Shown here piece after piece: positions 1 through 4,716 of a DNA stretch of 4,716 nt (position 1 is its first letter; every line of letters begins with the position of its first letter). Made by a program: the position numbers and the translations under genes. The notes below the pieces were generated by a model. The model did no database searches. It was not told the origin of the DNA and saw only the letters and a list, made by a program, of their open reading frames with translations. The DNA is from a virus (taxonomy: Duplodnaviria > Heunggongvirae > Uroviricota > Caudoviricetes): IMG/VR virus record IMGVR_UViG_2548876952_000002, positions 1 through 4,716 of that record, one strand, 5' to 3'.

Positions 1-330
1 AATGGCGAGGACGTCAGGCCGGTGGCCGACCGCGTGACCGTGCAGTCTGCCGCCATTGTTGAATATCAGATAAACGCCACGCTTTACCTTTACCCAGGTC
101 CCGAAAGCGAACCCATCCGCGCTGCTGCCGTGAAAAAACTGGAAGCGTATATCACGGCACAGCACCGGCTTGGGCGCGACATCCGTCTGTCTGCCATTTA
201 TGCCGCTTTGCATGTGGAAGGCGTGCAGCGTGTCGAGCTGGCCGCACCTCTGGCTGACATCGTGCTCAACAATACGCAGGCGTCTTTCTGTACTGAATAC
301 CGCGTCGTGACCGGAGGCTCGGATGAGTGA
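1..330 (+). CDS. Baseplate assembly protein J-like, C-terminal part (5' end lies outside the window)
   Basis: Frame 1 is open from nt 1 to the TGA at 328..330; the track ORF begins at an internal GTG (22) but the frame continues to the window edge. Stop overlaps the start of the next gene (ATG 323), as in tightly coupled phage tail operons. The J assignment comes from position immediately upstream of a gpI-like gene and general resemblance to P2 gpJ C-termini, recalled rather than searched. Confidence 0.55.
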   Translation, partial: NGEDVRPVADRVTVQSAAIVEYQINATLYLYPGPESEPIRAAAVKKLEAYITAQHRLGRDIRLSAIYAALHVEGVQRVELAAPLADIVLNNTQASFCTEYRVVTGGSDE

Positions 331-934
331 TTCGCGACTGCTGCCGACCGGCTCATCACCGCTTGAAGTCGCCGCCGCAAAAGCCTGTGCGGAAATTGAA
401 AAAACGCCGGTCAGTATTCGTGAGCTGTGGAACCCGGATACCTGTCCGGCAAATCTGCTGCCGTGGCTGGCGTGGTCATTTTCGGTCGACAGGTGGGATG
501 ATAAATGGCCGGAAGCGACCAAACGCGCTGTTATCCGCGATGCGTATTTCATTCACTGCCATAAGGGCACTATTGGTGCGATTCGCCGTGTGGTGGAGCC
601 GCTCGGCTATCTGATTGAGGTGAGGGAGTGGTGGCAACTCAACGAGGAGCCGGGGACGTTCCGTATCGTTGTTGGCGTGCTTGAGCAGGGTATTACCGAG
701 GAAATGTATCAGGAGCTGGAGCGCCTCGTTGCTGATGCAAAACCGGCAAGCCGCCATCTGACGGGACTGGCTATCAGTTTAAGTACAACCGGCAACATTT
801 TTGCCGGTGCGGGATGCTATCACGGTGACGCCCTGACGGTTTATCCCTACACCCAGGAGGCCATTATTGTCGGAGGGGATTATTTCCAGGCCTCGGCCAT
901 TCATTTAATTGATAACCTGAGAGTAAACGCATGA
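323..934 (+). CDS. Phage tail (baseplate) protein I, P2 gpI-like
   Basis: 203-aa ORF; GGAGG at 314..318 is 4 nt upstream of ATG 323. Start overlaps the upstream stop and its own stop (TGA 932..934) overlaps ATG 931 of the fibre gene (ATGA coupling). Position between J-like and H-like genes matches the P2 order J-I-H-G. Confidence 0.7.
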
Positions 935-2109
935 CAGTGAAATACTACGCCATTCTGACTAATCAGGGCGCAGCACGGCTGGCTAACGCGACGATGCTCG
1001 GCAGTAAGCTGAATCTGACGCAAATGGCCGTTGGTGATGCGAATGGTGTCTTGCCGACACCAGACCCGGCACAGACAAAACTGATTAACCAGAAACGCAT
1101 CGCGCCGCTGAATCTTCTGAGTGTTGACCCGAATAACCAGAGCCAGATTATTGCGGAGCAAATCATCCCTGAGAACGAGGGCGGATTCTGGATCCGTGAG
1201 ATTGGGCTTTATGATGATGAAGGCGTACTCATTGCGGTGGCGAACTGCCCGGAAACGTACAAACCGCAGTTGCAGGAAGGCAGCGGTCGTACCCAGACTA
1301 TCCGCATGATTCTGGTTGTCACGAATACCGAAGCCATCACGCTGAAAATCGACCCATCGGTGGTACTGGCGACCCGTAAATACGTGGATGATGAAGTCCT
1401 GGAATTAAAGCTGTATGTGGATGACCAGATGAGAAACCACATTGCCGCACAGGATCCTCATACCCAGTATGCGCAGAAACATAATCCGACATTTACCGGA
1501 GAACCAAAAGCGCCGACGCCTGCCGCAGGAAATAACACCACGCGGATTGCGACTACTGCGTTTGTTCAGGCCGCTATTACCGCTCTGATTAACGGTGCGC
1601 CAGCCACACTGGACACACTGAAAGAAATTGCCGCGGCCATTAACAATGACCCGAAATTCAGCACCACCATTAACAATGCGCTGTCAGGCAAGCAGCCACT
1701 GGATGAGACGCTGACTCATTTGAGTGGAAAGGATGTTGCCGGCCTTCTCGCATACCTTGGTTTGGGAGAAGCGGCTAAAAGGAATGTAGGGACAGGTGCG
1801 AATCAGCTACCTGATATGGGTAGTTTTATGCTTTCTGCTTCAGTTCCTGGATATCAAAAATTGCCATCCGGTTTAATTATTCAATGGGGGCCAATTGATG
1901 TTCCGCTGACGTCTCAGGACACAGTAACCTATTTTCCGATTGCATTTCCGAACAGATGTCTGCGGGTATTTGCGACTCAGGATTACACTCCCGGCAGTGC
2001 AAATGTTGGCTATATAGCTTGTGCCGGTTATAACCAGGACCCAGTGAAATTTATTTCCAGAGCAGGCGTACCCGGTATCGGTGCTTCATTTTTCGCATTA
2101 GGGTGTTAA
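931..2109 (+). CDS. Tail fibre protein (P2 gpH / Mu S-like): constant N-terminal part (931..1758) fused to variable tip cassette A (1759..2109)
   Basis: 392-aa ORF. The N-terminus ([20 protein letters not shown]...MAVGD...[29 protein letters not shown]...EGSGRTQT) has the conserved pattern of P2 H-family fibre N-termini, and the region around [12 protein letters not shown]...[30 protein letters not shown] is typical of the fibre shaft. The crossover site at 1745..1770 lies inside the coding sequence at the YLGLGE motif. Confidence 0.85.
1745..1770. repeat. Left 26-bp invertase crossover site (hix/gix/cix/pix-like), inside the fibre gene
   Basis: TTCTCGCATACC-TT-GGTTTGGGAGAA: two 12-bp half-sites in imperfect inverted symmetry around a central TT. 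The inner half plus core (1757..1771) is a perfect inverted repeat of 3644..3658. Confidence 0.8.
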
Positions 2110-2135
2110 TTTCTTTTAACTATATGGAGTGAAAA

Positions 2136-2576
2136 ATGAATTACATATATTCCGCGACTACAAACTCTTTCTATCCGCTGGAGATGAAAGAGGATTACAC
2201 GCAAGCTGACTCATGGCCAGATGATGCTGTTGAAGTTGATGAGCAAGTGTATATTGAGTTTTCCGGATTACCGCCGAAAGGAAAAATCCGTATCGCTGGA
2301 GAAAATGGTTTTCCTGCATGGTCTGAAATTCCACCACCAACACATGAGGAACAGATTGCTGCAGCCGAACTGAAAAAGCAGCAATTGATTAATCAGGCCA
2401 ACGATTATATGAACAGTAAACAATGGGCTGGTAAAGCGGCTATTGGTCGTCTGAAAGGTGAGGAACTGGCGCAATATAATTTATGGCTGGATTATCTGGA
2501 TGCACTGGAACTGGTTGATTCCTCCAGTGCGCCAGATATTGAATGGCCTACGCCTCCGGCAGTTCAGGCCAGATGA
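2136..2576 (+). CDS. Tail-fibre assembly chaperone A (P2 gpG / Mu U / Tfa family), partner of tip cassette A
   Basis: 146-aa ORF with GGAG at 2126..2129 and ATG at 2136, 26 nt after the fibre stop. C-terminus ...LDYLDALELVDSSSAPDIEWPTPPAVQAR carries the conserved Tfa C-terminal motif (cf. P2 gpG ending ...NPEWPEMPQ). Confidence 0.8.
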   Translation: MNYIYSATTNSFYPLEMKEDYTQADSWPDDAVEVDEQVYIEFSGLPPKGKIRIAGENGFPAWSEIPPPTHEEQIAAAELKKQQLINQANDYMNSKQWAGKAAIGRLKGEELAQYNLWLDYLDALELVDSSSAPDIEWPTPPAVQAR

Positions 2577-3150
2577 CATCCGGCGCGGTGCTGGTATCTG
2601 TTGCCGTCACCGCGTCAATGTAATCCAGCGCAGCGTTAAGTCGGGCGGTTTCTGCCTGCGTCAGATTCCGTCCGGCCTGCAATTTCAGCTGAATCAGACC
2701 GATGGAAACCATTGCTGCATCAATCAGTGACTGGCGCTGTGCTTCTGCCGCGTCTACTGCGGCGTGATGCTGTGCCTCAGTATCGGTCACCCATTTCTCA
2801 CCATCCCATTTATCGTATGGCGTTAATGGGGCGATAGTGGTTGTATTTTCGGGGTAATCACCCGGAGTTGTGATTTCTTTGGCGTCTCCCGTTTCGGTGT
2901 TATAGACGATTTCTCCGCGATGGTCTGGCACATATTCCCATGAGTTTAAATCCGCAGAGCGGCAGATGGCATAACCAGCTTTATATGTTCCTGGTGCATC
3001 TAAACAGGAACATGCCGGAATACCGACACCAACAGCAAGATATTCAGTTGATGTGGAAATATATTCTCGTGTTTCACCATTATAATTATAGACAGTAATA
3101 TCCCCCGCCTTCGTGGCAATAAACTCGCTATTTAATACGGCATTATCCAT
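2548..3150 (-). CDS. Tail-fibre assembly chaperone B (Tfa / U'-type), partner of tip cassette B
   Basis: 200-aa minus-strand ORF with a GAGGG Shine-Dalgarno about 8 nt upstream of the ATG (complement of 3148..3150). C-terminus ...LDYIDAVTATDTSTAPDVIWPELPEA has the same conserved Tfa motif as chaperone A, while the N-terminal domain is unrelated. Its ATG overlaps the TAA stop of the upstream minus-strand fibre cassette by 1 nt. Confidence 0.8.
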   Translation of the reverse strand: MDNAVLNSEFIATKAGDITVYNYNGETREYISTSTEYLAVGVGIPACSCLDAPGTYKAGYAICRSADLNSWEYVPDHRGEIVYNTETGDAKEITTPGDYPENTTTIAPLTPYDKWDGEKWVTDTEAQHHAAVDAAEAQRQSLIDAAMVSIGLIQLKLQAGRNLTQAETARLNAALDYIDAVTATDTSTAPDVIWPELPEA

Positions 3151-3698
3151 TATGCAGCCCTCACGATGTAATTAAATGAAAGGTTACGAGGGCGCATTGA
3201 TATCCATGCCCCGGTAAAATTATCCTCCGCTGTCCTTTGAGTACCCGTTATGGAGTTATCTGCTGATGCAGGAACATAATCGCTATTATTTCCTGCTTTA
3301 GGATTAGCTGGGTTTCCAACAGTTATAACAGAATCAGCAGTAGCAAAAGCGATACCTACTTTGACATTAGTATTCAGATCGTAACCGTAATAATCCTGCA
3401 AAGCTGTACGAATAAATGTTGCAGCCTGACCACTTAGCAATGAACGCCCCGTATCAATCCCTCTAGAATCATCCCAGCCACGAATAAACTCACCACGTAA
3501 ATCAGGCAATTTATTTGTCGGGTAAGCCTTTGCCAGTTCCGGGTATTCTTCAGCAGAAAAAGCTGCTCCGTTGCATTTCAGCCAGCCTGTTGGAGGTGTC
3601 TCTGAAGGCCACGGAACAGGTGCACCAACAGGTAATGCTGAACCTTCTCCCAAACCAACGTTTATGAAAATGCAGAGATAACGGGCAACTGGCATCAT
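3150..3698 (-). CDS. Alternative tail-fibre C-terminal cassette B (S'v-type, silent in this orientation); functional part is 3150..3656, and the track ORF's first 14 codons (MMPVARYLCIFINV) are probably artefactual
   Basis: From the crossover site inward the minus-strand frame reads GLGEGSALPVGAPVPWPSETPPTGWLKCNGAAFSAEEYPELAKAYPTNKLPDLRGEFIRGWDDSRGIDTGRSLLSGQ..., a collar-type C-terminal fibre domain (LPDLRGEFIRGWDD is the classic motif). The ORF start lies outside the invertible segment and has no convincing RBS; the cassette is in frame with the constant fibre part after inversion. Confidence 0.75.
   Translation of the reverse strand: MMPVARYLCIFINVGLGEGSALPVGAPVPWPSETPPTGWLKCNGAAFSAEEYPELAKAYPTNKLPDLRGEFIRGWDDSRGIDTGRSLLSGQAATFIRTALQDYYGYDLNTNVKVGIAFATADSVITVGNPANPKAGNNSDYVPASADNSITGTQRTAEDNFTGAWISMRPRNLSFNYIVRAA
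3645..3670. repeat. Right 26-bp invertase crossover site (hix/gix/cix/pix-like)
   Basis: TTCTCCCAAACC-AA-CGTTTATGAAAA. The inner half plus core is the exact reverse complement of 1757..1770; the outer half is degenerate (7 of 12 matches to the left outer half). Located 55 nt upstream of the invertase start codon. Confidence 0.8.
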
Positions 3699-3725
3699 CT
3701 CCGGTTTTTATTCAGGGGGATGCTC

Positions 3726-4319
3726 ATGCTTATTGGCTATGTACGCGTGTCAACAAATGACCAGAACACGGAATTGCAGCGTAACGCGCTGGAGTGCGCA
3801 GGATGCGAGCGGATTTTTGAGGATAAAATCAGCGGCACGAAGTCCGACAGACCGGGACTGAAAAAAATGCTCAGAACATTATCAGCAGGTGACACTCTGG
3901 TAGTCTGGAAGCTGGACAGGCTGGGGCGTAGTATGCGGCATCTGGTCATTCTGGTTGAGGAGCTGCGCGAACGCGGCATTAATTTTCGCAGCCTGACGGA
4001 TGCCATTGATACCAGCACGCCGATGGGGCGTTTTTTCTTTCATGTGATGGGTGCCCTGGCTGAAATGGAACGAGAACTCATTGTCGAGCGGACACGCGCC
4101 GGACTGGAAGCAGCCAGAGCCAAAGGTCGTATTGGTGGCAGACGTCCGAAACTCACCGCGAGTGAGTGGGAGCAGGTCGGACGGTTGCTGGCTGCGGGGG
4201 AATCTCGTCAACGTGTGGCGCTGATTTTTGATATTGGCCTGTCCACGCTCTATAAAAAATTCCCCTCATCAGCGACAAAGAATAAATTGTGTCATCCCTT
4301 AGCCAACCGGGACAAATAG
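3726..4319 (+). CDS. pin: Serine DNA invertase, Gin/Pin/Cin/Hin family (small serine recombinase, resolvase/invertase fold)
   Basis: Translation MLIGYVRVSTNDQNTELQRNALECAGCERIFEDKISGTKSDRPGLKKMLRTLSAGDTLVVWKLDRLGRSMRHLV...INFRSLTDAIDTSTPMGRFFFHVMGALAEMERELIVERTRAGLEAARAKGRIGGRRPKLT...STLYKKF is near-identical in motif content to Gin, Cin and especially Pin: catalytic Ser in GYVRVSTNDQ (codon 3750..3752), the VVWKLDRLGRS and GRFFFHVMGALAEMERELI blocks, and a C-terminal HTH. The track ORF starts at ATG 3720 (MLML...), but ATG 3726 gives the canonical MLIGY N-terminus and 6-nt spacing from AGGGGGA (3714..3720). Gene symbol is by family resemblance only. Confidence 0.93.
   Translation: MLIGYVRVSTNDQNTELQRNALECAGCERIFEDKISGTKSDRPGLKKMLRTLSAGDTLVVWKLDRLGRSMRHLVILVEELRERGINFRSLTDAIDTSTPMGRFFFHVMGALAEMERELIVERTRAGLEAARAKGRIGGRRPKLTASEWEQVGRLLAAGESRQRVALIFDIGLSTLYKKFPSSATKNKLCHPLANRDK
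3819..3870. promoter_or_regulatory. Candidate Fis-dependent recombinational enhancer (two putative Fis sites) inside the 5' part of the invertase gene
   Basis: Two 15-mers fit the degenerate Fis pattern G-N13-C with an AT-rich centre: GAGGATAAAATCAGC (3819..3833) and GACTGAAAAAAATGC (3856..3870). In Hin/Gin/Cin systems the enhancer lies within the first ~150-200 bp of the invertase coding region. Exact positions here are pattern-matching by eye; the centre-to-centre spacing I measure (~37 bp) is shorter than the ~48 bp I recall for hin, so this is uncertain. Confidence 0.3.
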
Positions 4320-4378
4320 CCTGACATCTCCGGCACAACTGAAAATATCACTCACCCATTAACCACGGAGTTAAACGG

Positions 4379-4716
4379 ATGAGTGACTATCATCACGGCG
4401 TGCAGGTGCTGGAGATTAACGACGGCACCCGTGTCATTTCCACCGTATCCACTGCCATTGTCGGCATGGTCTGCACGGCCAGCGATGCGGATGCGGAAAC
4501 CTTCCCCCTCAATAAACCGGTGCTGATTACCAATGTGCAGAGTGCAATTGCAAAGGCCGGTAAAAAAGGCACGCTGGCGGCATCGTTGCAGGCCATCGCC
4601 GACCAGTCAAAACCGGTCACCGTTGTCGTACGTGTGGAAGACGGCACCGGCGACGACGAGGAAACGAAACTCGCGCAGACCGTTTCCAATATCATCGGCA
4701 CCACCGACGAAAACGG
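4379..4716 (+). CDS. Tail sheath protein FI (P2 gpFI-like), N-terminal part (3' end lies outside the window)
   Basis: GGAG at 4367..4370 is 8 nt upstream of ATG 4379, and the frame is open to the window end (112 codons). Translation [61 protein letters not shown]... matches the conserved N-terminus of P2-type contractile tail sheath proteins. It is absent from the ORF track only because no stop falls inside the window. Confidence 0.85.

Follow-up and report, generated by a model that had tools for sequence, protein, structure and literature searches.

The stretch of DNA analysed here (the window, 4,716 nt, positions 1-4,716 of the IMG/VR virus record IMGVR_UViG_2548876952_000002) carries what its sequence identifies as the tail-fibre module of a P2-like prophage of Escherichia coli. 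The 3′ end of the fibre gene H lies in a 1902-bp segment that occurs in both orientations in public E. coli assemblies, and the genes and sites around it very probably form a functional two-state inversion switch of the Din family (Pin/Gin/Cin/Hin type). A listing of open reading frames (ORFs) and Pfam scans gave the following layout of the switch:

931-2109, plus strand: tail-fibre gene H, 392 amino acids (aa), with PF12571 at its N-terminus and PF21882 at its tip
931-1756, plus strand: constant part of gene H, codons 1-275, extending to the crossover core; PF12571 Phage_tail_fib, E = 2e-62
1745-1770, plus strand: left 26-bp crossover site, pix/gix-like, inside the YLGLGE codons, with its core TT at 1757-1758
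1757-3658, no strand: invertible segment, 1902 bp, delimited by comparison of the public contigs L015 and L011
1759-2109, plus strand: tip A, 116 aa, at present fused to the fibre; PF21882 gp53-like C-terminal domain, 63.9 bits
2136-2576, plus strand: chaperone A, a tail-fibre assembly protein of 146 aa; PF02413, E = 2.2e-37
2548-3150, minus strand: chaperone B, TfaE-like, 200 aa, convergent with chaperone A; PF02413, E = 2.6e-31
3150-3656, minus strand: tip B cassette, 168 aa plus stop codon, with a variable central insert; PF07484 collar, 58.6 bits
3645-3670, plus strand: right 26-bp crossover site, a match to the Din consensus, with its core AA at 3657-3658
3659-3698, minus strand: short leader (MMPVARYLCIFINV...) with an in-frame ATG-ATG in the non-inverting flank, opening the mirror ORF
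3150-3698, minus strand: ORF made up of the leader and tip B; PF07484
3726-4319, plus strand: serine DNA invertase of the Pin/Gin family, 197 aa, outside the invertible segment; PF00239 and PF02796
3744-3815, plus strand: putative Fis-dependent recombinational enhancer at the 5′ end of the invertase gene, by homology to P1 cin

The initial annotation of this DNA had described a complete invertase-driven switch that swaps the fibre tip together with its chaperone, and our analysis recovered all of its parts as well as both orientations in public assemblies. The 3′ tip of the fibre gene lies inside the invertible segment, two cognate chaperone genes converge on each other, the inverted 26-bp sites have identical core dinucleotides (TT/AA), and a Gin/Pin-family serine invertase is encoded next to them. 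Each chaperone gene directly follows its own tip on the same strand, as seen in the ORF listing. The two chaperone genes overlap at their 3′ ends in antiparallel orientation by 29 nt (2548-2576), and the stop codon of tip B overlaps the start codon of chaperone B in the sequence TAATG. Both chaperones belong to the Caudo_TAP family (PF02413), which includes lambda Tfa, P2 G, and Mu U.

The longest inverted repeat in the window is formed by 1742-1771 and 3644-3673, and within it a perfect repeat of about 18 nt extends over 1754-1771 and 3644-3661. The left 26-mer (1745-1770) reads TTCTCGCATACC-TT-GGTTTGGGAGAA and the right one (3645-3670), when reverse-complemented, reads TTTTCATAAACG-TT-GGTTTGGGAGAA. 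The two sites share the TT core and have identical inner halves, and their outer halves match at 7 of 12 positions. A scan of the window with the Din-site consensus TTCTCNNAAACCNNGGTTTNNGAGAA, allowing up to three mismatches, returned these two sites only, with 1 and 2 mismatches, and no match was found in any of 200 dinucleotide-preserving shuffles that served as control. No third crossover site emerged in the window when the consensus and the 14-nt inner half were searched with up to three mismatches allowed. Because a third site has left no trace there, the locus is a two-state switch and not a shufflon; a multi-site, shufflon-like system (as in Min of p15B or the three-site P2-like locus of enteropathogenic E. 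coli), which needs at least three sites, was considered and rejected on finding two. A separate, 17-nt inverted repeat with 94% complementarity connects CGTTGCATTTCAGCCAG (3569-3585) in the coding sequence of tip B with CTGGCTGAAATGGAACG (4056-4072) in that of the invertase. Roughly estimated, chance would produce about 0.03 such pairs in the window. This repeat has no apparent function and probably reflects two conserved coding motifs that match by coincidence.

Inversion of 1757-3658 in silico keeps the reading frame and converts the 392-aa fibre (276 aa plus the 116 aa of tip A) into a fibre of 444 aa (276 aa plus the 168 aa of tip B), the constant part being common to both forms. The inverted arrangement places the TfaE-like chaperone B directly downstream, with its start codon overlapping the fibre stop codon (TAATG). 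The change in length and the swap of the chaperone that the initial annotation had predicted were reproduced exactly. The parts of the switch, the in-frame fusion, and the family membership of all proteins can be read directly from the window and its matches.

The two tips share no detectable sequence similarity, as had been proposed, and each has a recognizable type, contrary to the earlier suggestion that one of them does not. Tip A is a gp53-like_C domain (PF21882, 63.9 bits with a cut-off of 24.9) with relatives in the Protein Data Bank (4mtm and the fibre feet of R1/R2 pyocins), and 63 phage records contain homologues of it. Tip B belongs to the collar family (PF07484, 58.6 bits with a cut-off of 24), is related to the tip of T4 gp37 (2xgf, E = 1.8e-14) and to gp12, and has homologues in 716 phage records; the proposal that the minus-strand cassette is a fibre domain thus held when tested. 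The N-terminal part of tip B and its C-terminal end (...FNYIVRAA) are conserved, with a variable insert between them. NCBIfam provided no names for the fibre, tips, and chaperones, and its matches to the invertase were all below threshold.

The invertase contains a resolvase catalytic domain (PF00239, E = 8.6e-53) and a helix-turn-helix domain (PF02796, E = 5.1e-13), and aligns, Ser9 included, with the protein sequences of crystallised Mu Gin (3uj3 and 4m6f; E = 2.8e-94). It is 86.2% identical to PinE of e14, 79.6% to Gin of Mu, and 78.5% to Cin of P1, and keeps both the serine motif YVRVSTNDQ and the motif DRLGR. Its start is likely the ATG at 3726, which yields 197 aa as in RefSeq and in the alignment to Gin, and not 3720. 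The invertase sequences EWEQVGRLL and GLKKMLR align to EWEQAGRLL and GLKRALK of Gin, and presumably correspond to the Hin residues numbered below. The pattern EWEQxGRLL in helix 1 of the DNA-binding domain and the basic residues of helix B are specific to Fis/enhancer-dependent invertases, in which the residues contacting Fis and the enhancer are Gln151, Arg154, and Leu155 of Hin and the basic helix-B residues 47, 48, and 51 (McLean et al., PMC3798978). A gap-free alignment pairs the region 3744-3815 with nt 19-90 of P1 cin, the stretch labelled as Cin enhancer in the P1 record. Pin, gin, cin, SEN8, and P88 all retain two blocks of this region, GTGTCAACAAATGAC (3747-3761) and GCGCAGGATGCGAGC (3796-3810), as candidate Fis sites. 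Enhancers of the Din family comprise two Fis sites spaced by about 48 bp. The centre of the first block lies 96 bp away from the core of the right site, and the corresponding distance in the Hin system is about 100 bp (PMC3798978). Serine recombinase domains, the serine of the YxRVST motif, the Fis-contact residues, two inverted 26-bp sites, and natural inversion are the Din-family features that the locus displays.

Both orientations occur in nature. Among public E. coli assemblies, the exact 392-aa fibre was found on 7 contigs and the exact predicted 444-aa fibre on 29, and the corresponding exact ORFs on the opposite strand, of 182 aa and 130 aa, were found on 7 and 32 contigs, respectively. 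The loci compared for orientation were collected via the invertase protein. One of them, L015 (GCA_012610915.1), equals the window at 4716/4716 positions, and another, L011 (GCA_044682145.1), equals the window inverted in silico, again at 4716/4716 positions, so that the inverted orientation anticipated by the initial annotation exists at the level of assemblies. Over 9594 nt, the inversion is the sole difference between L015 and L011, and no difference remains after inverting 1757-3658. When the breakpoints were slid along the sequence, zero mismatches were obtained only if the left breakpoint lay at 1757 or beyond. Mismatches appear at once when the non-identical outer half-site bases are included, a pattern that marks the central dinucleotide as the point of exchange.

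To assess recurrence, eleven full-length relatives were compared over the 4716 nt after their orientation had been normalised. The closest pairs are opposite in orientation, namely L015/L011 with 0 differences, L005/L001 and L013/L012 with 1 each, and L006/L016 with 5, and lineages differ from each other at 28-106 positions. Four lineages thus each occur in both orientations with only 0-5 differences, which requires a minimum of four recent inversions that happened independently. Complete genomes display both states with matching RefSeq annotation, CUPF09 being B-ON and EFF60 A-ON.

Two further, independent contigs assembled from short reads (Logan contigs L008 and L009) end about 140 nt past the right crossover site, at approximately 3795-3807, in the most conserved part of the invertase gene. 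The probable cause is that further pin genes in these genomes act as repeats and interrupt the assembly, and not mixed orientation.

Between the right crossover site and the invertase gene, an in-frame ATG-ATG on the minus strand (3698/3695) opens an ORF of 182 aa that runs through the leader into tip B. After inversion, this ORF has 130 aa and consists of the leader MMPVARYLCIFINVGLGE and tip A. Both versions are annotated in RefSeq, and the description of the tip B cassette as start-less in the initial annotation is therefore not strictly true. The leader at 3659-3698 is the counterpart of the e14 StfE leader MPFACYFFIFINVGLGE, and the ORFs are the counterparts of e14 StfE and StfE2. The flank is invariant within the window's own group of relatives. 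Six of eight systems (the window, e14, Mu, SEN8, Kp4846-2, and pro483) share a Met-Pro start located 12 codons ahead of the core, and P88 and YenM201.16 lack it; in ENT90, the site was not found with the pattern used.

Following the paradigm established for Hin and Gin, dimers of the invertase would bind the two 26-bp sites and be activated by the Fis-bound enhancer at the 5′ end of the invertase's own gene. Staggered 2-bp cuts at the identical TT/AA cores would then be followed by subunit rotation, turning the 1902-bp segment. In the present orientation, the late operon by its sequence encodes the constant part (276 aa) with tip A (116 aa), a gp53-like lectin-type foot, followed by chaperone A. 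In the inverted orientation, it encodes the constant part with tip B (168 aa), a T4 gp37-like collar tip, and a translationally coupled chaperone B. A population of lysogens would thereby yield virions with two alternative receptor-binding tips, which would make the locus a bet-hedging switch of host range comparable to those of Mu and P1. By analogy with its relatives, this particular invertase presumably catalyses the reaction in a Fis-dependent manner, and the precedent of Mu and P1 suggests that the two fibres would differ in host range. Phase variation of the fibre locus has been demonstrated by sequencing and PCR in P2-like prophages of enteropathogenic E. coli (EPEC; Goldberg et al., PMC4272514).

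Several points weigh against this interpretation. The evidence for flipping comes from comparison between assemblies, from which ongoing switching in one culture would have to be extrapolated. A host-range effect would presuppose that the prophage is inducible and that the two tips bind different receptors. Other Pin-type invertases in the same genome could invert the segment in trans, as PinQ acts on e14 (PMC12529663). Since the candidate Fis blocks are coding sequence, we examined conservation at third codon positions, and the extra conservation in the blocks was not significant (5/10 vs. 5/25, p = 0.11). Because of this result, the Fis-dependent enhancer at 3744-3815 is proposed from homology only. 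We nevertheless regard a functional two-state switch of the Din family in the tail-fibre module as very likely.

A different emphasis is conceivable in which the segment does flip but the main payoff for the lysogen is phage defence, through a free 130- or 182-aa protein that would mask receptors, as is reported for e14 StfE2. Although compatible with a host-range switch, this explanation seems quite unlikely to us. The in-frame ATG-ATG, the frame that stays open across the right site, the annotation of both ORFs in public genomes, the homology of the leader to that of e14 StfE, and the Met-Pro start kept in six systems all speak for it, as does the reported finding that StfE2, composed of the leader and a gp53-like tip, stops adsorption of T2 after inversion of the P segment (Kirigo et al., 2025; PMC12529663). 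However, that finding was obtained with plasmid overexpression, and tip A is just 34% identical to the StfP tip. The sole Shine-Dalgarno-like sequence, GGAG, abuts the ATG with zero spacing, a consensus scan found no promoter-like site on the minus strand, and chance alone would keep a frame this long open nearly half the time. Moreover, the Met-Pro start is missing from P88 and YenM201.16, and conservation of TGGCAT may merely reflect the promoter region of the invertase gene. The narrower proposition that the 'off' cassette is not silent and yields a free tip protein (182 aa with tip B or 130 aa with tip A) for receptor-masking superinfection exclusion in the lysogen is likewise unlikely, with a small chance of being correct. 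If it were true, a single flip would alter the host range of the virion and the phage-resistance profile of the host together.

It is very unlikely that the sites are functional while the adjacent invertase is inactive or not responsible, with a Din-family enzyme of the host (e14 PinE, PinQ, or PinR) acting in trans. Din invertases do cross-react, as PinQ of Qin inverts the e14 P segment (PMC12529663), and the window and e14 have the same right crossover site. The invertase ORF is, however, intact with all catalytic and Fis-contact motifs present, and because the protein is 100% conserved across several diverged lineages, it appears to be under purifying selection. That the locus is a frozen relic, in which the two orientations are old fixed polymorphisms of a switch that no longer flips, would be in line with a comparison made between assemblies and none within one culture. 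We consider this highly improbable in view of the 0, 1, 1, and 5 differences in 4716 nt between pairs of opposite orientation, compared with 28-106 between lineages of the same orientation, the identity of L015 and L011 over 9.6 kb save for the flip, and the need for at least four recent independent inversions. Finally, inverted repeats can confuse assemblers or recombine, and the differences in orientation might be assembly artefacts or products of RecA-dependent recombination between short inverted repeats. This is scarcely credible here: the perfect repeat of about 18 nt is far below the length of sequencing reads, both states are present in complete genomes, and the breakpoints fall at the centre of Din-consensus sites. 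A repeat of about 18 nt is also below the length usually required for efficient RecA exchange.

The inversion switch is embedded in a P2 backbone, of which the window contains the following features:

22-330, plus strand: C-terminal end of P2 gpJ, with the fibre gene downstream
323-934, plus strand: gpI, PF09684 Tail_P2_I, E = 2.9e-56, with the fibre gene downstream
4287-4382, plus strand: region of the P2 late promoter P_F, from the activator-binding site to the start of FI, by alignment to P2 (NC_001895)
from 4380, plus strand: start of the sheath gene FI, from the ORF listing

The gene order J-I-H-(G)-FI, the P2 protein families, and the P_F promoter are those of a P2-like (Peduoviridae) tail module. 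Related contigs (L004-L019) carry full sets of P2 late genes on both sides of the module, and the gene order, with Baseplate_J domains, is the same in all related loci. From about position 4287 onwards, the window follows P2 almost letter for letter through the P_F region, for which the activator-binding site and the transcription start of the F operon are annotated in NC_001895. Because P2 late genes flank the module and the P_F region is nearly identical to P2, the element is, judged by its sequence, a P2-like (Peduoviridae) prophage of E. coli, and the initial annotation had likewise called it P2-like; PF09684, PF12571, the late gene sets, and the P_F region all point in this direction. The invertase cassette occupies the place of the non-essential Z/fun gene of P2, between G and FI. 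The last 11 codons of the invertase gene (4287-4319), which lie beyond the Gin/Pin homology, overlap the activator-binding site of P_F, and homology to P2 restarts exactly there. Across the tips and the N-terminal portions of the chaperones (1800-2400 and 2850-3600), guanine-cytosine (GC) content falls to 41-45%, compared with 50-59% for the P2 backbone and for the invertase gene; such low values in the cassettes fit modules that are exchanged horizontally. A consensus scan of the window for promoters and terminators was uninformative, since it returned two promoter-like sites where 4.3 were expected, and the terminator-like matches lay inside coding regions.

For annotation, these results mean that the 392- and 444-aa 'phage tail proteins' and the 182- and 130-aa 'gp53-like / phage tail' ORFs represent two states of one locus, and not separate genes or strain markers. 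Because near-identical surveillance isolates flip recurrently, orientation is not a phylogenetic character.

The P segment of e14 in E. coli K-12 (stfP-tfaP-tfaE-stfE-pinE) has the same gene order and orientation as the window, including the 29-nt antiparallel overlap of the tfa genes. Chaperone B is 88% identical to TfaE (200 aa), chaperone A 60% to TfaP (102 aa), tip B 57% to StfE, and the invertase, as stated above, 86.2% to PinE. The right site is identical to that of e14 at 26/26 positions, the left site differs at 3/26, and the mirror ORFs of the two systems share one leader. Inversion of the P segment has been shown experimentally (PMC12529663; PMC4272514) and was mapped by sequencing and quantitative PCR at the inner repeat TTGGTTTGGGAGAAG (Kirigo et al., PMC12529663), which the window and the P segment have in common. 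Unlike e14, a decayed lambdoid remnant, the window has its module joined to an intact P2-type fibre N-terminus and to baseplate and sheath genes. The tips also differ, with tip A being 34% identical to the StfP tip and the central variable part of tip B departing from StfE, and the window invertase has a C-terminal extension of 13 residues that runs into the P2 P_F promoter.

Mu is the textbook host-range switch. As in the window, the invertase gene of the Mu G segment/Gin system lies outside the segment, beside the right site, and its enhancer region is homologous; the two invertases are 79.6% identical. Mu likewise combines a constant fibre part with alternative S/S′ tips and convergent U/U′ chaperones, but its segment is about 3 kb in size with much longer variable parts, and its phage backbone is different. 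The tips and chaperones of Mu and the window are essentially unrelated, the only similarity being that between chaperone A and U′ (30% over 73 aa). The C segment/Cin system of P1 shares the recombinase family (78.5% identity) and the design of the 26-bp sites, and its annotated enhancer lies near the 5′ end of cin, at the place of the putative one in the window; cixL is located at the 3′ end of cin. Hin belongs to the same recombinase family and uses the same 26-bp site design, but switches a flagellin promoter instead of a fibre tip.

Among P2-like elements, pro483, S164, P2 from O157:H43 T22, Klebsiella Kp48xx, Salmonella SEN8, and the P2-like prophages of EPEC E2348/69 have the same backbone and carry the fibre-chaperone-chaperone-tip-invertase block at the same place, between gpI and FI, with cassette content that differs from member to member. 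One EPEC P2-like prophage has three sites and four states, whereas the window has two sites. Pro483, in which a 'DNA invertase' is annotated, aligns to 84% of the window at 94% identity; a literature search on pro483 found nothing on inversion. Two of the related contigs possess other cassettes beside an identical invertase protein or an identical fibre A. L010 (1761-4473) encodes a 391-aa fibre, chaperones of 144 and 197 aa, and a 178-aa tip without a Pfam match, and L004 (7618-8726) a diverged B cassette with a 201-aa chaperone and a 167-aa tip. Evidently, prophages that resemble each other elsewhere swap cassettes. The locus has little discovery value. It illustrates a textbook mechanism cleanly, was read correctly, and represents the long-known Pin/Gin/Cin system in ordinary form; near-identical copies of the locus are already deposited and annotated in pro483, S164, and many RefSeq E. 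coli genomes.

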